A stretch of DNA of 64,000 nucleotides from the NCBI GenBank assembly GCA_964572155.1, contig CAZNDZ010000001.1:910290-974289 (forward strand), read 5' to 3'. A program made the position numbers and the translations under genes. The DNA comes from an uncultured Planctomycetales bacterium. GTDB lineage: Bacteria > Omnitrophota > Gorgyraeia > Zapsychrales > Fredricksoniimonadaceae. Shown piece after piece: positions 5,387 to 42,599 of this stretch. Numbering within the stretch: position 1 is the stretch's first letter; each line of letters starts with the position of its first letter. The notes under the pieces are model-generated. The model was not told the origin of the DNA. It saw nothing but the letters and a program-made list of their open reading frames with translations, and made no database searches.

Positions 5387-8383
5387 ATGCGTAAATTAGT
5401 TTTTATCATAGTTTTAGCTAGTTTTATTCTAAGCGTCTTTAATATTCCAACACTTAAAGCCAGTGAGATCGTATTACCTTCGCCTGGCACCATGGTTCAT
5501 TTAAGCCCTTCGTTTCAACCCCCAATATTAAAAGGCATTAAAGTTCATCCTGATAACCCATTTAAATTCGAATTTGTGTTGTCGCAGGGCGACAACGCAT
5601 CCGCCGTAGCTGAACACGAAAGTAATTCAGCGAAGGCGGATTTCCTTAAACAAGAATCAACAAAATTAATCAAGTATTTCCTCGCCGCCCTAACCACGCC
5701 CGAAAAAGACATGTGGGTTAATTTAAGCCCCTACGAAAAAGACCGCATTGTGCCCGACGGTTTTGGTCAAACCGAAATGGGACGTGACTTATTAGCCCAA
5801 GATTATATCCTTAAACAAATCACCGCATCCTTAGTTTATCCCGAGGGGGAGATTGGCAAAACATTTTGGAAACGCATTTATGAAGCAACCGCCAATAAGA
5901 ATGTGCCTGTAAACACCTTTAATAAAGTATGGATAGTCCCAGCAAAAGCTGTCGTGTATGAGAACCCAGCATCAGGCACTGCGTATGTGGTTGAATCGTC
6001 ACTTAAAGTGTTAACCGAGCAAGATTACCTTGCTAATACCAAAAATAACAATCAACAAAACAACAATCAAATCGTCCGAGACATCATCATCCCGCAACTC
6101 ACCAAAGAAATCAACGAAGGCAAAAACTTCGCCCAACTCCGACAAGTATACAATTCCTTAATCTTAGCGACGTGGTACAAAAAGAAGATCCGAGACAGCA
6201 TCCTTTCGCAAGTCTACGCAGATAAAAATAAAGTAGCAGGGATCAACATAGACGATCCTTTGGAAAAGCAAAAAATTTATGACCAATATTTACAAGCGTT
6301 CAAGAAGGGGGCGTATAACTTCATCAAAGTAGAGCAAGATCCTTTAACGCAACAGATGATGCCAAGGAAGTATTTTTCGGGTGGGATGCATATGAATATG
6401 GACATGATGTCAACGGTTCATGTAATGCCAAATAGCTTTACCGATTCTAATCAAGCAATGTTGGTACAAGTGAGTATTGCTCCTGAAGGAGCGCGAGTTA
6501 ATGAGGCGATAGATCAACCTAAAGACCCGAAAGTTTTAGCTTTAACAGATTCAATTAATGCATCTATTCATGAAAAAGGTATTTTGGAAATGCAATCAAT
6601 TGATTATGACGATCCTTTATATGTTCAGGTCAGAAATATTATTGCAGTTGCTAACAATCACGAGTTTCATGCTGGAGATGAATACCGTAGCGGGATGGCA
6701 GAAGCGGTTTACAGGGTTGTTCAATATTTAAAATCGAGAAATGATCTTATGAAATTAGACTTTGAGCAGATAGCGAGATTTTTATTGCTAAAAAGGGTGA
6801 TGATTGCAGGAAAATTAGCAGAAAAAGGTAATAGTGATGAAATAGATCTTATTTCAGGTGTAGGAGATAGCGACGGATGGAGGGTTAGATCGCTTGGTAG
6901 GTTTGGATCTCCTCAATCTATTTCTTTTGCTAGTTCCAAGGGGTATCCTGAACTTTATCAAAAGTTAATGCGTAAGAAAAATGAATTTGAATTATCAAAG
7001 AATGGGATATTAACTTATAGAAAAACCTATAGATTTGGAGCGACTAGAACCAAGTATGATCAAATCATTGAAGTTGATAATGATTTTCTGGAATTTAAAA
7101 TTTATCATGCTGATCCAAATTCAGTTCCTTTAATTTTGTTTCATCTGCAAGATCTCTGGACGGAGATATTAAGTAATTCTAATCTAGATAAACGTGATCG
7201 TCTAATAGCTGAAATGGAATGGTGGTTTTATCAGGCTAATCCCTATATCAGGGCTGGGGCAAGCATTGGTAATGCGCTATCTCTTATTGCACAAAGTTTA
7301 ACAGGCAAGATTTTGGATGATCATTTCGAGCACCATGACTGGGACGCTTTATCTAGCACACTCGAGGAATATATCCTTAATCGTTCAAATCAATTTCATC
7401 AATTAAGACAGATACAAGCTGCTTCAAACCCTGCAACTAAAACAGGAAAGACAGCGGACAACGCCCAATTAGCTCAAGACGCTGCCATGCATCATACAGA
7501 GAGTGTTCCTGATTTATCTCAATTTAAAGTAGGAATATCAAATGATCGTATTTCATTATTTAATCAGGGAAAAACTTATGAGTCGCTAAGCAGAGAGGGT
7601 CGAAGTCACATCTTTATATATGGAAATTATGTTATTCGAGTACGGCCTAATACCGAACAAATGTTTCTTAATCTGCAAAGCATCGTAGCCGCATTTAATT
7701 TAGGAAATCAAATTGGCATTCCAATTCCGAGTGTTAGGGCTAGTGGATATATAAATGGAGAAGATGGTAAAGTTTATTCAGCTATCGTTGTTGATCGTAT
7801 AGAGGGTTTTTCTCTTGATAGTAGTTCTATAAAAATGGTAAATCAAGAAGACAGGGTGCGATATACGGAATTATATATTGAATTATTAAGAGCGATGCTT
7901 AAAAATCATGTGGTCCTCGGTGACTGGCAAGCAGCGCAGTTTATGATTGGATATAATGTGAATGACCCTCAAAAAAATATTAAGGCTTGGCTAGTTGATC
8001 CGAAAAGCATGTATGTAGATGAGAATAAACGAAATCGAGCAATAGTGTATTATCAAAATATCTTTTCTCAGGATTTTGTAGAAGTTAATGAATATTTAGA
8101 TTTACGGCTGATTGAAGAATTTTTATTGACGGAAAGTGGAGTACACAGAAGTCGTTTCGAATCTATTCGTGATTCAGCAGCTGCGGCTCGTGGTGGGATT
8201 GATTTTAATGCTGACAAAATAAATTTAGAGACAAATGTCGGTGAGGGGATTAAGTTTCATGTTGATCCTGCCATGTTTAAACAACTTCAAGATGCCCCAG
8301 GATTTACACCGGTTATTATTGACATTCAACCCATGACGGATTTGCCAAAGTTTCTTGGGCTAAAAGTAAGCAACTTGCCTTAA
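5387..8383 (+). CDS. Giant Sec-secreted modular protein, paralog A, with conserved N- and C-terminal modules and unique central cargo; function unknown
   Basis: 998 aa. Sec signal peptide 'MRKLVFIIVLASFILSVFNIPTLKA|SE'. N-terminal ~330 aa and the last ~55 aa are highly similar to ORF 37407..41774 at both protein and nucleotide level. The middle is AT-rich and unrelated. Confidence 0.85.
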   Translation: MRKLVFIIVLASFILSVFNIPTLKASEIVLPSPGTMVHLSPSFQPPILKGIKVHPDNPFKFEFVLSQGDNASAVAEHESNSAKADFLKQESTKLIKYFLAALTTPEKDMWVNLSPYEKDRIVPDGFGQTEMGRDLLAQDYILKQITASLVYPEGEIGKTFWKRIYEATANKNVPVNTFNKVWIVPAKAVVYENPASGTAYVVESSLKVLTEQDYLANTKNNNQQNNNQIVRDIIIPQLTKEINEGKNFAQLRQVYNSLILATWYKKKIRDSILSQVYADKNKVAGINIDDPLEKQKIYDQYLQAFKKGAYNFIKVEQDPLTQQMMPRKYFSGGMHMNMDMMSTVHVMPNSFTDSNQAMLVQVSIAPEGARVNEAIDQPKDPKVLALTDSINASIHEKGILEMQSIDYDDPLYVQVRNIIAVANNHEFHAGDEYRSGMAEAVYRVVQYLKSRNDLMKLDFEQIARFLLLKRVMIAGKLAEKGNSDEIDLISGVGDSDGWRVRSLGRFGSPQSISFASSKGYPELYQKLMRKKNEFELSKNGILTYRKTYRFGATRTKYDQIIEVDNDFLEFKIYHADPNSVPLILFHLQDLWTEILSNSNLDKRDRLIAEMEWWFYQANPYIRAGASIGNALSLIAQSLTGKILDDHFEHHDWDALSSTLEEYILNRSNQFHQLRQIQAASNPATKTGKTADNAQLAQDAAMHHTESVPDLSQFKVGISNDRISLFNQGKTYESLSREGRSHIFIYGNYVIRVRPNTEQMFLNLQSIVAAFNLGNQIGIPIPSVRASGYINGEDGKVYSAIVVDRIEGFSLDSSSIKMVNQEDRVRYTELYIELLRAMLKNHVVLGDWQAAQFMIGYNVNDPQKNIKAWLVDPKSMYVDENKRNRAIVYYQNIFSQDFVEVNEYLDLRLIEEFLLTESGVHRSRFESIRDSAAAARGGIDFNADKINLETNVGEGIKFHVDPAMFKQLQDAPGFTPVIIDIQPMTDLPKFLGLKVSNLP

Positions 8384-8757: not shown

Positions 8758-9438
8758 TTGCTATTTTTATATTTAGATGAGTCTGGGAATTATGTTTTTA
8801 CTAAAAAGGGTTCAGAATATTTAATTTTTACGGCTTTAGCAACAAGTAATCCTTACATGTTGCAATATAGGCTTTGTGAAGTAGAGGAGAAGCTTAGAGA
8901 AAATAGTCTAATGACGGCTGAGTCCCAATACTTTCATGCTACAGAAGACAAACAGGTTGTTCGGGATGAGGTCTTTAAAGTTTTGAAAGAGTGTGATGAT
9001 TTTACAGTGGATAGTATTATTGTTGAGAAATGTAAAACGAATATAGAGTTGAGGGAAGAATCTCAATTATACAGAAAGATTTATCATGTTCTTTTGGAGT
9101 ATGTTTTTAAAAGACATCAAGACGTTGAGAAAATTATAATATTTATTCATGCCGCACCGGTTAATAAGAAAAGACATGCCTTTGAGAAAGGGATTAAAGA
9201 AACCCTAAACGGTATTTTGGATAAAGAGCGACTTGGTGGGAAAATAAAATACCACATTCAGTATCTTCCAACAATTTCTAGCTATGGATTACAGGCTGTT
9301 GATTATTGTTCATGGGCTTTAAAGAAGAAATGGGGAGAATGGGGGGAGAAGATCGACTTACGACCATATGGTTGCATTTCGAATAAGGTAAAGAGTGAGT
9401 TTGAGATATTTAAAATAGGTCAAAAGATATATTATTGA
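8758..9438 (+). CDS. DUF3800-family protein
   Basis: 226 aa, TTG start preceded by SD 'AAGGAAAGG'. N-terminal 'LFLYLDESGNYVF' matches the DUF3800 'IYIDESG' signature and C-terminal 'LQAVDYCSWAL' matches its 'QLADLIAYAI' motif. Strongly AT-rich relative to neighbours. Confidence 0.6.
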   Translation: MLFLYLDESGNYVFTKKGSEYLIFTALATSNPYMLQYRLCEVEEKLRENSLMTAESQYFHATEDKQVVRDEVFKVLKECDDFTVDSIIVEKCKTNIELREESQLYRKIYHVLLEYVFKRHQDVEKIIIFIHAAPVNKKRHAFEKGIKETLNGILDKERLGGKIKYHIQYLPTISSYGLQAVDYCSWALKKKWGEWGEKIDLRPYGCISNKVKSEFEIFKIGQKIYY

Positions 9439-37356: not shown

Positions 37357-37383
37357 AACATCCATCAAAATTGGCATTTTTAT

Positions 37384-37399
37384 TGTATATATAGTATGC
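37384..37399 (+). promoter_or_regulatory. AT-rich promoter-like element upstream of paralog B sharing TGTATATA/TATAGTATG with the paralog A upstream region
   Basis: 'ttgtatatatagtatgcttaagtaATG' has TATAGT 11 nt before the ATG and no SD. Confidence 0.4.
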
Positions 37400-37406
37400 T
37401 TAAGTA

Positions 37407-40400
37407 ATGCATAAAAGTCTTATCTACATCTTAATCGTCGCATTTGCCTGTGGAACCTTGTGCCCAAATAGGGTTTTGGCCAATGAGCTTGTTTTACCAG
37501 CGCCAGGTACAATGGTTCATTTGAGTCCTTCGGTTGATACGCCCATTTTAAAAGGCATCAAAGTACATCCCGAAAATCCTTTTAAATTCGATTTCGTCTT
37601 GTCGCAAGGTGATGCAACTTCAAACTTAAACGTAACATCAAACAAACTTGTTAAGTATTTTCTAGCCGCATTGACCACCCCAGAAAAAGACATGTGGGTT
37701 AACTTAAGCCCATATGAAAAAGACCGCATTGTCCCTGAGCATTTTGGTACAACAGAAATGGGTCGAGATCTTTTAGCCCAAGATTATTTGCTAAAACAAA
37801 TTACCGCGTCGCTGGTTTATCCTGAAGGGGAAGTGGGGCAAGCCTTCTGGAAAAAAGTCTATGCGTTATCACCGAATAAAAATATCCCTGTAAACACCTT
37901 TAACAAAGTATGGATCGTCCCTAATAAAGCCGTTGTTTATGAAAACGCCAAAGCTGGCAGCGCCTATGTGGTTGAATCATCCTTGAAAGTCATGACTGAG
38001 CAAGATTACCTTGCCGACACAAAAAATAAGAGCACATCAACTAATAATCAAGTTGTGCGCGATATTGTCATCCCACAACTCACCAAAGAAGTCAACGAAG
38101 GCAGCAACTTTGCGCAACTGCGACAAGTATACAATTCCTTAATCTTAGCGACGTGGTACAAGAAAAAGATCAAAGACAGCATCCTGTCACAAGTATACGC
38201 CGATAAAAATAAAGTAGCCGGCGTAAATATCGAAGACCCCCAAGAAAAGCAAAAAATCTATCAGCGTTACCTTGAAGCGTTCAAGAAGGGGGCCTACAAC
38301 TACATCAAAGAAGAGCAAGACCCTGTAACGCATCAAATCATTCCTAAGAAATATTTTTCTGGTGGGATAAGCGCAACAAATTTTAGTAATCAAGCTATGA
38401 CGGTAACAACAGATCCTTCCAATATTCAAAAAGGAATGAATGGTGATAATTTAAAAATTGTATCTGTGTCTATAGACAGGGCGCAAATTGTTCCCATTGT
38501 CCCAATTGCTTCAGTTAATGTTAATGAAGGTGTGACGAATAAATGGCTTGGTAATCATTTGGATCAAATAGATATGTTTCAAGCTTTTGAAATTCTCAAC
38601 GAAGAACATCCTGAATTTAAAAAATTAGAAGAACAAGAAAATAAGATTCTTGTTATCGGGGGAACAGTAGAAGAAGTTAATTTCTTAATTCGGCGATATC
38701 CAAAATCAAGCATTACGGTAGTCAGCTTAAATGAATCTGATTTAAGAGGCTTGCAAGCGTTTGAAAGTAATATGGGAGTAGGAAAAATTAATGGTTTATT
38801 TCTAGGCGATGTCAGAGATTTGACAGCAAGAGAAATTCCTGATGATTCTTTTGATATTGTTTTCTCTCATGGGATAGATTCTTCGACTTTCTTAAGTGAG
38901 GTTGATGCTACGAAAGTATTACAAGGAATAGCATCTCAAGAAATGCGCATGCTTAAAGCGGGTGGCCTTTTATATCATCCTTATATAGGGGATAAAAATG
39001 CTTTAAAGCAATATTATTCGCAACAGTCTGAAGCTGGTTCTCTAAAAGAACTTAAATCAGGTAAAGAGTACCCAGAATTCTTTGTTAAAAGTATGCAGGG
39101 TTCAACTCAATTAAGTAAACAAATATTTGATAGGGCACAAGCATCAAAGAAATTAGTTGTTACAAATCGGGCTAAGGAAATTTTGAGAGAAGTATTTGAT
39201 ATTGGACCGGGTGTTTGGGTGAAAATCCGCGATCTGAGAAAGGGTGAGATTGCTGTTCAGAGAGGTTTATCTGGTTCAGAGCATGAAGGGGATTATATTG
39301 GAGATGGTATTTCTGAAGCATTGAATATATTAAATGGAAAGGTAGATCTCGAAAAACGGTCATACAGTCGAAATGATTTGGATGAATTAACATATGCAGT
39401 AACAAGTCATTATGCTTTACCTTTTGCAATGCGATTTGCTGTTGATGACAAAATTGATCCAGAGATAGGTTTGAGCGAAGAACATATTTATTTGAAAGGT
39501 ATGAATCCTGAAAATTTACTTCAAGTTGCTTTGATTCCTAATCGATCACAGGCTTATTATTGGGCTAGACGGTATCTTAGCTTAATAGAGGATTTAGGTA
39601 TTAAGTTCCGACCTAATAGCAACGGTAAAGTTTTTTCTGATAGCGTTAAAGAGATTATGAAAGAGATAGAGTTCGGAAAGAAGACAGCTTATGGAAGACC
39701 AATAAAAAATTCAGATTATATCAATTCGAAGTTAAGTGCATTATTTGAAAAGTATGAAGCGCCATCCCAGCAGGTTGTTAATTTTATCAGCTCTGGTGCA
39801 ATGATTTCAGAACGTAATATGAACGTGGCGGATAATGCACAAGCATCGTCTGAGGGTAAAATGTTTGGAAGCGTTGAATACCAAGCAATGAAGAATGAAA
39901 AAGATATATCGGTTTCAGTGAAGGACGGTCAACTTATTCTTGAGGGAAAAGAAGGGGTTTATAAAATGCCGTTTTTTGATTCTAAGGATGTTCAAATAGG
40001 AAAACGCATAGGTCAACGAGATGAAAATTCTAATATGGGGTATAGAAAGATCGTTTTCAAAAACAGTGTAGAATTTTTGGGGTATATGCCAGAATTAGGT
40101 AGTTTAACAGCGTTGGAAAGTTTTCTTAAAACACTGAGCATAGTACATACAAACCCTCAGGCTGAGGCTGCATTACCAAGGATTTATGGAGCTTATTATA
40201 ATGATAGAAATGAAATTGAATTAATCGTTGATAAATTTGATTTGCCTCATCCAGACTCTAATTATTTAACAAAAGATGCATCAGTTGAGGTTTTAGATAA
40301 TACATCACAAATACTTTCTGATGGTGTGTTGGCCAGTATTGTATTAAATGGTCTTAATTTAAGCAAAGTGTTCGAAGTTGATTATACGTTTATTGAAGCA

Positions 40401-41774
40401 AATGGACATTTGAGATTTTCATTTCCTGTTAGAACTATCCAATGGATGGAAGAAGTTGGCAGAGGTAAGATTTTTAGAGTCGAGAAGGAGTACCCCTCAC
40501 TAGATTTTGATGCAATCTTGGATGTGCAATATATGATTAAGGAGGGATACCTTCGAGAAGTTATTTCTTATAAAGCCATATTTGCATCGTTTGTAAGAAG
40601 CGCATTTTCTAGATTGATAGCATTTGATCAATCATTACCAAAGATATATTTGATGAGTGGGTATGCTTTGAATGATCTTGTCAGCAATTTGCGTTTTAGA
40701 TTTCTACGGAGAATGATTAACGAATATGGTTTCAAAGCAGTAATCAAAATACAAAACCAACTACATCTCAACGATCCTCGCTTAGAGCGTATTATTTTAG
40801 AAAGAATACACCAACAGTCAAATAATCTTCGTTGGATATTCGAAGTAGAAACAGATCTGGGAGAGTTTATATTTAAGACAGATAGAGATTTGCCATGGGA
40901 CAAAAGAGTAAGATTGGCTTTGAAAATGAAGTTAAAAGATTTTCAATTAAAAACGAATACAGGATTTGATTTTAAAAGTACATATGAAAGTCTATATCAG
41001 GACTTTGTTAAAGAGTCAGGCATTTCAAATCAATCCATGAGCTCTAATCTAAACGGAGCTAAAATATCTAGAAGAGGAATAATTGCTGGTGCGGTTGGTT
41101 TGGGTTTGGCGAGAGTGTTACCTAAGGCTTCTGCGCAACCAGTGAACATTGAGTCAGTGAGAATAATAAACCCTAAAACTTCTTTTGGATATTCTATATT
41201 TGAATGGGATGCGATGAAAGAAGAGGAAAATCTTAGAATAAGTTTGAAAGCTGCAGACGCGCTTGCACAGATATATTTAATGAAAGATCCAAGATCTAAG
41301 TTGTCTGATTTTCTTGAGGTGGCAAAGAATGCTGCATCTGATGAAGATAGAAATACAATGCGATGGGTGTTTCATGTGCTTGATAAACGGGGGGATAGTT
41401 GGACAGATAAAATTAATTGGGATAATAAAGCGGATGTGGATGCGCAGTTTAAGCGAGTCTATGATGACGGGTCTAATGAGCTGAGAAAGTCGGCAAATAT
41501 AGCATTAGGAAAGTATTGGTCGCCGGAATTATTAAAAGCGGTTTTGGCAAAAGATAAGGCTATGAACGTAGATACGAATCAGGATCTTGGTGGTATTGAT
41601 TTTAATGCTGATAAAATGAAGTTAGAGCTTCAGAATTCTGGAGATAGCATTAAGTTTCAGATGGATGCGGCAGAGCTTAAGCAATTGCAGGATGCGTCTG
41701 GGTTTACGCCGGTTATTGTGAATATTCAACCAATGACGGATTTGAAATTGTTTTTGGGTTTGTCTCAAAAATAA
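37407..41774 (+). CDS. Giant Sec-secreted modular protein, paralog B, with conserved N- and C-terminal modules and unique central cargo including a class-I methyltransferase-like segment
   Basis: 1455 aa. Signal peptide 'MHKSLIYILIVAFACGTLCPNRVLA|NE'. The N-terminal ~300 aa after the signal and the C-terminal ~55 aa are highly similar to ORF 5387..8383. The middle is AT-rich and unique. Confidence 0.85.
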   Translation: MHKSLIYILIVAFACGTLCPNRVLANELVLPAPGTMVHLSPSVDTPILKGIKVHPENPFKFDFVLSQGDATSNLNVTSNKLVKYFLAALTTPEKDMWVNLSPYEKDRIVPEHFGTTEMGRDLLAQDYLLKQITASLVYPEGEVGQAFWKKVYALSPNKNIPVNTFNKVWIVPNKAVVYENAKAGSAYVVESSLKVMTEQDYLADTKNKSTSTNNQVVRDIVIPQLTKEVNEGSNFAQLRQVYNSLILATWYKKKIKDSILSQVYADKNKVAGVNIEDPQEKQKIYQRYLEAFKKGAYNYIKEEQDPVTHQIIPKKYFSGGISATNFSNQAMTVTTDPSNIQKGMNGDNLKIVSVSIDRAQIVPIVPIASVNVNEGVTNKWLGNHLDQIDMFQAFEILNEEHPEFKKLEEQENKILVIGGTVEEVNFLIRRYPKSSITVVSLNESDLRGLQAFESNMGVGKINGLFLGDVRDLTAREIPDDSFDIVFSHGIDSSTFLSEVDATKVLQGIASQEMRMLKAGGLLYHPYIGDKNALKQYYSQQSEAGSLKELKSGKEYPEFFVKSMQGSTQLSKQIFDRAQASKKLVVTNRAKEILREVFDIGPGVWVKIRDLRKGEIAVQRGLSGSEHEGDYIGDGISEALNILNGKVDLEKRSYSRNDLDELTYAVTSHYALPFAMRFAVDDKIDPEIGLSEEHIYLKGMNPENLLQVALIPNRSQAYYWARRYLSLIEDLGIKFRPNSNGKVFSDSVKEIMKEIEFGKKTAYGRPIKNSDYINSKLSALFEKYEAPSQQVVNFISSGAMISERNMNVADNAQASSEGKMFGSVEYQAMKNEKDISVSVKDGQLILEGKEGVYKMPFFDSKDVQIGKRIGQRDENSNMGYRKIVFKNSVEFLGYMPELGSLTALESFLKTLSIVHTNPQAEAALPRIYGAYYNDRNEIELIVDKFDLPHPDSNYLTKDASVEVLDNTSQILSDGVLASIVLNGLNLSKVFEVDYTFIEANGHLRFSFPVRTIQWMEEVGRGKIFRVEKEYPSLDFDAILDVQYMIKEGYLREVISYKAIFASFVRSAFSRLIAFDQSLPKIYLMSGYALNDLVSNLRFRFLRRMINEYGFKAVIKIQNQLHLNDPRLERIILERIHQQSNNLRWIFEVETDLGEFIFKTDRDLPWDKRVRLALKMKLKDFQLKTNTGFDFKSTYESLYQDFVKESGISNQSMSSNLNGAKISRRGIIAGAVGLGLARVLPKASAQPVNIESVRIINPKTSFGYSIFEWDAMKEEENLRISLKAADALAQIYLMKDPRSKLSDFLEVAKNAASDEDRNTMRWVFHVLDKRGDSWTDKINWDNKADVDAQFKRVYDDGSNELRKSANIALGKYWSPELLKAVLAKDKAMNVDTNQDLGGIDFNADKMKLELQNSGDSIKFQMDAAELKQLQDASGFTPVIVNIQPMTDLKLFLGLSQK

Positions 41775-41807
41775 TGAAAAATATTATAAGCATGCTAATA
41801 TTGATTT

Positions 41808-42197
41808 ATGAAATCAACTACTAAGACTTGGATAGCTTTAGCAAAGAATGATTTATCCTTAGCTAAAGAGTTGGTTAAGAAGAAGGGGCGGTATCATTAT
41901 TGTGTTCACTTTTGTCATCAATCTTTAGAAAAGATGTTGAAGGCTATTATTAGCGAACGAACAAGATTGTTGCCATTACCGACACATAATTTTAAGACGT
42001 TGTTGGATCAAAGTGGGTTAAAAGATATTCCTGAAGATATTAAGATTTTCTTGTATGGGATGATACCTAATTATATAGGAACAAAATACCCTGAAGATAT
42101 TATGAAGCTTTATAAGAAGTATAATAAAATTTATGCTGATGGGGTTTTAAAGAGAACGGTTGAGGTTGTAAAATGGTTAGAAAAATTAGCGAGATAA
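41808..42197 (+). CDS. HEPN-domain protein (toxin-like component of a HEPN/MNT pair)
   Basis: 'CVHFCHQSLEKMLKAIISERTRLLPLPTHNFKTLL' (R-x6-H) and 'MIPNYIGTKYPED' match the HEPN (PF05168-type) consensus '..AEKALKA....THDL..LL...YYIEARYPD'. Confidence 0.75.
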   Translation: MKSTTKTWIALAKNDLSLAKELVKKKGRYHYCVHFCHQSLEKMLKAIISERTRLLPLPTHNFKTLLDQSGLKDIPEDIKIFLYGMIPNYIGTKYPEDIMKLYKKYNKIYADGVLKRTVEVVKWLEKLAR

Positions 42198-42499
42198 AGA
42201 GAATATTGGCCGAATATAAGGCTGAGTTAAAGACGCATGGCGTGCGCGTTTCTAAGATGTATTTATATGGCTCTTACGCAAATGGGAATCCAAAGTCTTA
42301 TAGTGATATTGATGTGGTGGTAATCTCGTCAGATTTGGCTAAGTATCCTGCATTAAAGCGTCAAGAGGTGTTGTCACAATGGACTATTCCAGTCAATGCG
42401 CCTTTAGAAGTAATTGGGTACACACCAAAAGAATTTAGTTTGGCTAAAGGAACAATTTTTGGCCAAATTCTAAATCAAACTGCAATATCGTTAAATTAA
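42173..42499 (+). CDS. Minimal nucleotidyltransferase (MNT) domain protein (antitoxin-like partner)
   Basis: 'MYLYGSYANGNPKSYSDIDVVVI' is the G-S-x9-D-x-D nucleotidyltransferase motif; overlaps the HEPN gene by 25 nt. Confidence 0.75.
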   Translation: MVRKISEIKRILAEYKAELKTHGVRVSKMYLYGSYANGNPKSYSDIDVVVISSDLAKYPALKRQEVLSQWTIPVNAPLEVIGYTPKEFSLAKGTIFGQILNQTAISLN

Positions 42500-42599
42500 G
42501 AATATTTTCTTCTTTTTGATTTGAATTTGACTCTCCTTCGCGTTAAGATTAAAACATAATTTGTGACCCACACTAACTCGGATTTGAATCCCAAAAGAA

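Follow-up and report, generated by a model that had tools for sequence, protein, structure and literature searches.

A HEPN-first gene pair assigned by its sequence to Class II of the HEPN/MNT modules in an Omnitrophota genome

Two small overlapping genes that follow a large gene for a secreted protein raise the question of whether they form a toxin-antitoxin module and, if so, why they stand in what looks like the wrong order. The window, that is the whole stretch of DNA that was analysed, comprises 64,000 nucleotides of an Omnitrophota genome assembly (GCA_964572155.1, contig CAZNDZ010000001.1). From its letters and reading frames, the original prediction had described a HEPN/minimal nucleotidyltransferase (MNT) pair of two plus-strand reading frames overlapping by 25 nt, placed directly after a gene termed paralog B. 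The reading frames, their overlap and their placement 33 nt downstream of paralog B on the same strand were all recovered exactly.

37407..41774, + strand: paralog B, a 1455-aa secreted 'carrier-domain' protein, directly upstream of the pair
41808..42197, + strand: HEPN gene, 129 aa, pI 9.7, PF05168 'HEPN-T', assigned to the AF0298-like alternative-site type
41985-41987, 42084-42086 and 42087-42089, + strand: codons of the key HEPN residues H60, K93 and Y94, respectively
42173..42499, + strand: minimal nucleotidyltransferase (MNT) gene, 108 aa, PF01909 and PF18765
42173..42197, + strand: 25-nt stretch shared by the end of the HEPN gene and the start of the MNT gene

Based on the observations set out below, we favour, with a probability of roughly 60%, the view that the pair is a selfish, self-contained Class II HEPN/MNT module in which a HEPN effector is restrained by MNT.

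Class assignment and gene order

Judged by their sequences, both open reading frames are far beyond chance and represent real genes under selection, because they have many homologues of near-constant length: at 50-80% identity there are more than 100 homologues of HEPN and more than 190 of MNT, nearly all of them 129 and 108 aa long, respectively, and the named ones belong to 'Candidatus Omnitrophica'. The description of the pair as AT-rich, like paralog B, also holds, with a GC content of 0.337 vs 0.416 for the window and a GC3 of 0.32-0.34, which is close to that of paralog B (0.31) and below that of the downstream genes.

In Pfam, HEPN matched PF05168 (E=1.2e-13, 51.7 bits, cutoff 22) over profile positions 2-116 of 117, and this was the sole family matched at E<=0.01, there being no match to PF01934 or PF08780. 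MNT matched NTP_transf_2 (PF01909; E=2.3e-9, 37.9 bits, cutoff 21) and also Polbeta (PF18765), and the nucleotidyltransferase signature that had been pointed out in it, 'GSYANGNPKSYSDIDVVV', is present and is a real GSx10DxD. A single-sequence search of the PDB with HEPN gave nothing meaningful; a profile search was needed, and it matched TM0613 and TT1696. Searches of NCBIfam, including its HepT models, and of PADLOC with HEPN gave no match. Foldseek comparison of the AF2 model of HEPN (pLDDT 91.3) gave TM values of 0.80 for TT1696, 0.75 for ST0689, 0.73 for AF0298 and 0.72-0.75 for sacsin HEPN, but only 0.45-0.59 against most HepT toxin chains; on this model, the HEPN fold is nearest to the classical PF05168 structures. 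For the MNT model (pLDDT 92.5), the top matches were the antitoxins 2rff, Legionella 8xeo, Shewanella MntA 7bxo and HI0073, and the fold also matched ANT(9), LinB, AadA and KNTase. Profile searches, the kind of check that the original prediction had named, and fold searches support both domain calls.

HEPN/MNT modules have been divided into two classes (Yao et al., 2020, PMC7641770). Class I combines PF01934 (DUF86) or PF08780 with PF01909, carries an RX4HXY motif and includes the type VII HepT/MntA systems, whereas Class II combines PF05168 with PF01909, is without RX4H, has a conserved tyrosine and retains GSx10DxD in its MNT (PMC7641770). The pair in the window shares with Class II modules (COG2250-COG1708; PMC2701414, PMC7641770) the adjacent small PF05168 and PF01909 genes, the absence of RX4HXY, the conserved HEPN tyrosine, the MNT GSx10DxD, a mobile and patchy spread, and TT1696, ST0689 and AF0298 as nearest folds. 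With the Class I HepT/MntA systems of Shewanella (SO_3166/SO_3165), Aphanizomenon and Legionella it has in common a HEPN-fold protein partnered by a GSx10DxD MNT, the resemblance of MNT to the MntA structures 7bxo and 8xeo, and a tyrosine beside the putative active site. In contrast to those systems, its HEPN belongs to PF05168 and not to PF01934 or PF08780 and lies far from the HepT chains in the fold comparison, RX4HXY is lacking, MNT scored 26.8 bits against the NCBIfam MntA_antitoxin equivalog model, below the cutoff of 60, and MNT is not the upstream gene; four defining features of Class I are missing. On sequence grounds, the pair is a Class II HEPN/MNT module, not a Class I HepT/MntA (type VII) system, and it is a real but ordinary member of a widespread class of which thousands of pairs are known. 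In itself the locus adds little, being one more member of a known but experimentally unexplored class: no biochemical study of Class II existed as of 2020 (Yao et al., 2020, PMC7641770), and our literature searches for experiments on PF05168-class pairs found none.

The textbook statement that "MNT is almost always 5'" fits Class I (DUF86), in which the tested pairs have MNT upstream of HEPN (PMC7641770), and is not grounds to flag Class II pairs. The order in the window had seemed reversed because the pair was compared with Class I, which is the wrong reference class. HEPN was followed by an overlapping MNT on the same strand in 29/29 distinct related loci, which came from Omnitrophota, Planctomycetota, Myxococcota/'Deltaproteobacteria', Pseudomonadota MAGs, Berkelbacteria and unbinned metagenome contigs. 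Among classical PF05168 pairs on RefSeq plasmids, five of six were HEPN-first, with overlaps of 4-74 nt, namely those of Thermus thermophilus HB8 pTT27, T. scotoductus pTSC8, Meiothermus taiwanensis and Thermomicrobium roseum (two loci); the lone nucleotidyltransferase-first pair was that of T. brockianus pTB1. This plasmid census is small, as the TT1696 and TM0613 seeds gave only Thermus, Meiothermus and Thermomicrobium plasmids, and the window's HEPN found one weak match only in the plasmid collection. HEPN-first is the normal order for Class II, and with Class II as the correct reference class the supposed anomaly vanishes.

The predicted HEPN site and its MNT partner

The string 'RLLPLPTH' had been proposed as the R-x6-H motif of HEPN. 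It is present, but its arginine, R53, is without conservation: it is unique to the window's HEPN, the relatives having D, N, K, E or G in an alignment of 34 homologues, and the same column holds G, K, N, D, Q or E in 150 representatives of the wider family. We rule it out as a catalytic motif and regard it as a chance string in which only H60 is conserved. The second proposed string, 'NYIGTKYPED', does occupy the homologous HEPN motif position, but the canonical residues there are substituted. In a profile-to-PDB comparison, 'GTKYPEDI' aligned with 'PTRYPDAL' of TM0613 and 'PTRYPDAH' of TT1696, and therefore the true Rx4-6H position is K93-x4-I98, where both residues of the canonical RNase dyad have been replaced.

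Other residues of this region are strongly conserved, with H60, K93 and Y94 as the invariant residues of the window's subfamily. Among the 150 wider-family representatives, H60 was present in 145, a basic residue at position 93 in 148 (R in 142, K in 6) and Y94 in 148, and histidine at position 98 in none. P95 and an acidic residue at position 96 were also conserved in HEPN homologues, and in the 34-homologue alignment E96 and D97 were invariant beside K93 and Y94. A conservative R-to-K change is the sole difference between the window's HEPN subfamily and the wider clade, and this lysine in place of a near-universal arginine also sets it apart from other Class II modules. The AF2 model places H60 between helices 29-51 and 76-84, and K93 in the loop that follows the latter helix, within the stretch of lowest confidence (loop 91-100, pLDDT 67).

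Anantharaman et al., 2013 (PMC3710099) described AF0298-like HEPN-T proteins and AbiV as lacking the motif histidine and keeping the basic residue, and noted in this variant a second, strongly conserved histidine, in a helix2-helix3 insert, for which they proposed an alternative active site. The window's HEPN has the basic K93, an isoleucine and not a histidine at position 98, and the conserved H60, which lies N-terminally in the helix2-helix3 insert. Its sequence therefore marks it as an alternative-site protein of the AF0298-like 'HEPN-T' type, the alternative H/K site being a published proposal. It departs from AF0298-like HEPN-T and AbiV in having lysine, not arginine, at the basic position, and from AbiV also in its partner, which is an RNA antitoxin for AbiV and MNT here.

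In MNT, G33, S34, D45 and D47 are shared by all 32 homologues compared and E79 is near-invariant; in MntA, the counterparts of D45 and D47 are the catalytic D39 and D41. The catalytic set G33-S34...D45-x-D47 plus E79 is thus intact at the sequence level, and we predict that the protein is active.

The same two proteins could instead form a two-subunit nucleotidyltransferase, in which HEPN would be a non-toxic binder of substrate or nucleotide, much like the C-terminal domain of the kanamycin/lincosamide nucleotidyltransferases, and MNT would catalyse modification of a small molecule (e.g. an antibiotic) or a protein. This was the original proposal for HEPN/MNT pairs (PMC3710099, PMC2701414), and the absent RNase dyad, the invariant E96 and D97 beside K93 and Y94 and the likeness of MNT to ANT(9), LinB, AadA and KNTase would all suit it; the HEPN-first order poses it no problem, and resistance genes are likewise mobile. 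Nevertheless, given that the top fold matches of MNT are MNT antitoxins and not resistance enzymes, that the resistance-family models all stayed below cutoff, that the family-wide H, R/K and Y are the residues proposed for an alternative RNase site (PMC3710099), and that the broken-HEPN remnants and tandem arrays described below better fit a module of toxin-antitoxin type, we consider a two-subunit enzyme rather unlikely.

The cassette, its spread and its insertion site

The selfish, self-contained module that we favour would be expressed from two short elements, one before each gene.

41793..41801, + strand: putative extended -10-like promoter element TGCTAATAT, its hexamer ending 6 nt before the HEPN ATG
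42162..42165, + strand: SD-like GAGG within the HEPN reading frame, 7 nt ahead of the MNT ATG

The pattern TGnTAnnnT, starting 12-24 nt upstream of the HEPN start, occurred in 8/19 related loci, against 0.27 expected at random positions and 9/196 at other ORF starts (Fisher p=1.2e-5). No SD was seen upstream of the HEPN start. The cassette probably carries its own promoter, and the end of the -10 hexamer, so close to the HEPN ATG, therefore implies a leaderless or very-short-leader mRNA. A generic scan for sigma-70 promoters and terminators performed at chance level and gave no terminator after MNT, and the RNA fold of the intergenic sequence downstream of MNT was not significant (z=-1.3).

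At the junction, nearly every related locus has GAGG or GGAG 8-11 nt ahead of the MNT start. The MNT ATG is embedded in K/R-W-L codons of HEPN, such that HEPN W123-L124 and MNT M1-V2 share nucleotides, and the overlap is 25 nt long in loci of Omnitrophota and Berkelbacteria but 34-49 nt long in those of Planctomycetota and Myxococcota/Pseudomonadota. Because an SD-like site and a start codon both lie within the HEPN codons, the sequence suggests that MNT translation is coupled to that of HEPN. The operonic, toxin-antitoxin-like architecture that had been proposed holds up in the overlapping genes and their conserved junction.

The HEPN/MNT family is patchy across five phyla, and the flanking genes differ in each locus. 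Elsewhere the cassette neighbours leuA/aroE, metH/ppa, a TPR gene with a pilus cluster, gyrA, fab genes or pyr genes; in one locus (L058) it lies at the margin of an integrase/Prim-Pol element, beside another small gene pair, and in two others (L025, L027) the pair is tandemly duplicated. The pair shows generic traits of a toxin-antitoxin system, with small proteins encoded in one two-gene operon and a spread that is mobile and patchy, and from its sequence context the cassette looks like a small, self-contained, mobile unit. In most loci its GC content is below that of the flanks; AT-richness is thus a property of the cassette itself, and low GC, being cassette-wide in most hosts, loses the value that the original prediction had given it as evidence tying the pair to paralog B.

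Decay of the cassette appears to be one-sided. HEPN was broken and MNT intact in L022 (stop codon), L031 (frameshift) and pTB1 (split), and the converse, a broken MNT beside an intact HEPN, was not seen among the loci examined; in L034 a HEPN remnant alone was kept. Loss of HEPN first is the pattern predicted if HEPN is harmful, in a sample of three in which the MAG frameshifts are possibly assembly errors.

If HEPN is indeed harmful and held inactive by MNT, it could be freed on phage infection, so that the module would serve abortive infection; such a role would share the mechanism that we favour and differ in what it is for. Among the candidate defence families of PADLOC, MNT matched PDC-S09 (2.5e-10) and PDC-M05A; AbiV, a related HEPN with an alternative histidine, acts as an RNase against phage (bioRxiv 10.1101/2024.05.05.592566); HEPN-T genes are often found in clusters with restriction-modification systems (PMC3710099); and the surroundings of the cassette in L058 would be in keeping with defence. 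However, the neighbours of the pair in the window are PFOR, folate-metabolism genes and PolA, with no known defence genes flanking it, most cassettes elsewhere lie in housekeeping operons, HEPN itself has no match in PADLOC, and no HEPN/MNT copies were found on IMG/VR viral contigs or in the GenBank phage collection. We regard an anti-phage role as improbable.

The site of the cassette in the window can be compared with the corresponding site of relatives that share the surrounding genes.

5387..8383: paralog A
37357..42599, no strand assigned: lineage-specific block between Pyr_redox (315 aa) and FTCD_C, with the genes for paralog B, HEPN and MNT

Four syntenic relatives (L040-L043), anchored on the downstream FTCD_C gene, keep the order PFOR-alpha/beta - Pyr_redox(315) - FTCD_C - FolD - Pyr_redox(388) - PolA, with protein identities to the window of 77-88% for PFOR/Pyr_redox and 59-70% for FTCD_C. 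In these relatives Pyr_redox is separated from FTCD_C by a pirin-like gene or by no more than ~100 bp, and this presence/absence survey found none of paralog B, HEPN and MNT at the syntenic site; the segment 37357-42599 is therefore specific to the lineage and occupies a variable spot. Relatives without both support the earlier suggestion that the pair is accessory DNA that may have arrived with, or next to, paralog B. Around the 5.2-kb insertion the repeats were short, chance-level matches, with no target-site duplication and no att-like repeats; there are no tRNAs in the window and no Rfam matches at 36.5-44 kb.

A signal peptide, an N-terminal region of ~334 aa (72% identity) and a C-terminal region of ~58 aa are common to paralogs A and B, whose middles are unrelated; a Pfam search with paralog B gave no match. 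Their N-domain family has more than 1312 matches, none with a functional name, and is almost entirely from Omnitrophica where the sources name them, with several members per MAG and diverse added domains (HAD, methyltransferase, kinase, HEAT). A gene of this family lay within 2 kb of the cassette in 5/16 Omnitrophota-type loci, directly upstream in the window, L057 and L034 and downstream in L017 and L014. Against a background of ~1 family gene per 98 kb, drawn from only ~200 kb sampled, this gives a binomial P~3e-4, and the five linked loci have dissimilar flanks and HEPNs that are not grouped in a single clade.

Such adjacency invites the view that the pair and paralog B are linked in function, the two small genes serving the variable cargo of that secreted protein in an immunity or accessory role, or acting as a dedicated stabiliser of the locus. 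The narrow gap on a common strand, the joint absence of pair and paralog B from the relatives' site and the recurrence in unrelated surroundings speak for it, and the recurrence gives limited support to the earlier idea that the pair may stabilise the locus. The idea does not extend to the other 11/16 Omnitrophota-type loci or to any non-Omnitrophota locus, all of which are without such a neighbour; no pair follows paralog A, the side of the cassette on which the family gene lies varies between loci, a promoter signature of its own precedes the cassette genes, and the background estimate comes from a small sample. It may simply be that variable regions, as hot spots, accumulate both elements. 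A functional tie to paralog B is very improbable in our view, and we reject an immunity pair specific to the paralog B cargo as the main explanation, since most cassettes lack such a neighbour and paralog A lacks a pair. A broader version would make the HEPN-first Class II modules a mechanistically distinct system, with a His...Lys/Arg alternative-site effector, a leaderless transcript and a coupled modifier, that in Omnitrophota sits preferentially beside the hypervariable loci of secreted carrier-domain proteins and stabilises or services them, as opposed to inserting at random as a selfish element; we think this a long shot. That members of a polymorphic family of secreted proteins recur beside the cassette in Omnitrophota is nonetheless a modest new lead.

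A proposed working of the module

We propose the following model for the selfish HEPN/MNT module, in which the promoter and coupling steps draw on conserved sequence, the roles of effector and MNT on conserved residues and Class I analogy, and the selfish behaviour on comparative evidence. First, a promoter abutting the HEPN start codon would give a bicistronic, probably leaderless mRNA. HEPN would be translated first, and ribosomes reaching the internal GAGG and the embedded ATG would then produce MNT in a coupled manner. HEPN, a basic four-helix bundle without the Rx4-6H dyad, would be the effector and is a candidate toxin, which may target RNA via an alternative site formed by H60 and K93, as suggestions in the literature would allow (PMC3710099, PMC7641770). 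MNT would most likely restrain HEPN by binding it and by nucleotidylylating a tyrosine near the active site, for which Y94 is the best candidate. Both the toxicity of HEPN and AMPylation by MNT are proposed here by analogy. The cassette as a whole would behave as a selfish module of addiction or defence type, which in the window may have come with, or next to, paralog B.

Several observations count against a toxin and its antidote. A toxin-first order gives the antidote no head start, the canonical dyad is substituted, no HEPN model of PADLOC or NCBIfam recognises the protein, and MNT falls below the MntA cutoff. Other operons, such as higBA, hicAB and mqsRA, likewise place the presumed toxin gene before the antidote gene in a coupled arrangement; unlike MNT, their antitoxins are labile binders and repressors and not enzymes, and the protein families are unrelated.

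The window's pair defines a large mesophilic branch of Class II, with 491 clusters at 50% identity (E<=1e-10), whose hosts are uncultured bacteria of the Omnitrophota, Planctomycetota, Myxococcota and Berkelbacteria, in contrast to the thermophiles and archaea of the Class II modules described previously. Its hallmarks are an H...R/K-Y-P-E/D site under sharp conservation, a coupling junction that is likewise conserved and a promoter that probably gives a leaderless transcript, and H60, K93 and Y94 are concrete residues for a first biochemical test of Class II.

Putative carrier-domain proteins with variable cargo

Two paralogous genes in the window each encode a large secreted protein:

5387-8383, paralog A
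37407-41774, paralog B

The two proteins share a signal peptide, an N-terminal domain of ~334 aa, 72% identical between them, and a C-terminal segment of ~58 aa, which reads 'GGIDFNADK...GFTPVI..IQPMTDL..FLGL', and their central regions are unrelated to each other. The N-domain family returned >1312 matches, none of which carries a functional name; among those whose source gives a name, almost all are from Omnitrophica, with several per MAG, and the domains added to the N-domain vary (HAD, methyltransferase, kinase, HEAT). The family appears to be polymorphic, of the 'carrier domain plus variable cargo' type. In Pfam, the central region of paralog A (residues 572-626) only just passes the cutoff for AvrB_AvrC, a family of type III effectors (23.8 bits vs a cutoff of 23.2), which is a possible hint at the nature of its cargo. 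In the window, the HEPN/MNT pair was not found after paralog A; a DUF3800 gene (8758-9438) lies there instead, after a gap of ~370 bp and within the same AT-rich stretch.

Cassettes beside carrier-domain genes

A gene of the carrier-domain family lies <2 kb from the HEPN/MNT cassette in five of the 16 Omnitrophota-type loci, an adjacency with a rough binomial P of ~3e-4 (background sample of ~200 kb):

window, 37407-42499
L057, 2748-6695
L034, 826-4153
L017, 2219-6590
L014, 3297-5863

The flanking genes differ among these five loci, and the HEPNs of the linked cassettes are not monophyletic. In the window, the cassette and paralog B occupy a spot that is variable among relatives, namely the interval from Pyr_redox (315 aa) to FTCD_C, here compared with four related genomes of conserved synteny (L040-L043):

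Window, 37357-42599: paralog B, HEPN and MNT
L040-L042: a pirin-like gene of ~220 aa
L043: about 100 bp

Decay, tandem pairs and the gene junction

Three loci carry decayed cassettes:

L022, 702-1447
L031, 3992-4633
L039 (Thermus brockianus plasmid pTB1), 1161-1953

The interrupted gene was always HEPN, by stop codon, frameshift or split, with MNT intact in all three, and no intact HEPN beside a broken MNT was seen. At L034 (4001-4153), the sole leftover of the cassette is a HEPN remnant of 50 codons, itself interrupted by a stop. Two loci from Myxococcota/Deltaproteobacteria (L025, 3124-4698; L027, 1748-3540) each hold two HEPN-then-MNT pairs in tandem, and the first pair of L025, which belongs to a divergent subfamily, is also HEPN-first. 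In L058 (1670-6683), the cassette is preceded by Prim-Pol/DUF3987, HTH_17, a tyrosine integrase and a pair of small genes (DUF433/DUF5678), and it therefore borders an integrative element, adjoining a second TA-like pair, DUF433/DUF5678. The MNT start codon, embedded in the HEPN gene, lies partly within the TGG codon of HEPN W123. Since W123 is kept in 135 of the 150 representatives of the wider HEPN family (P0342-P0491), the HEPN-first overlapping junction may span the whole clade of 491 clusters.
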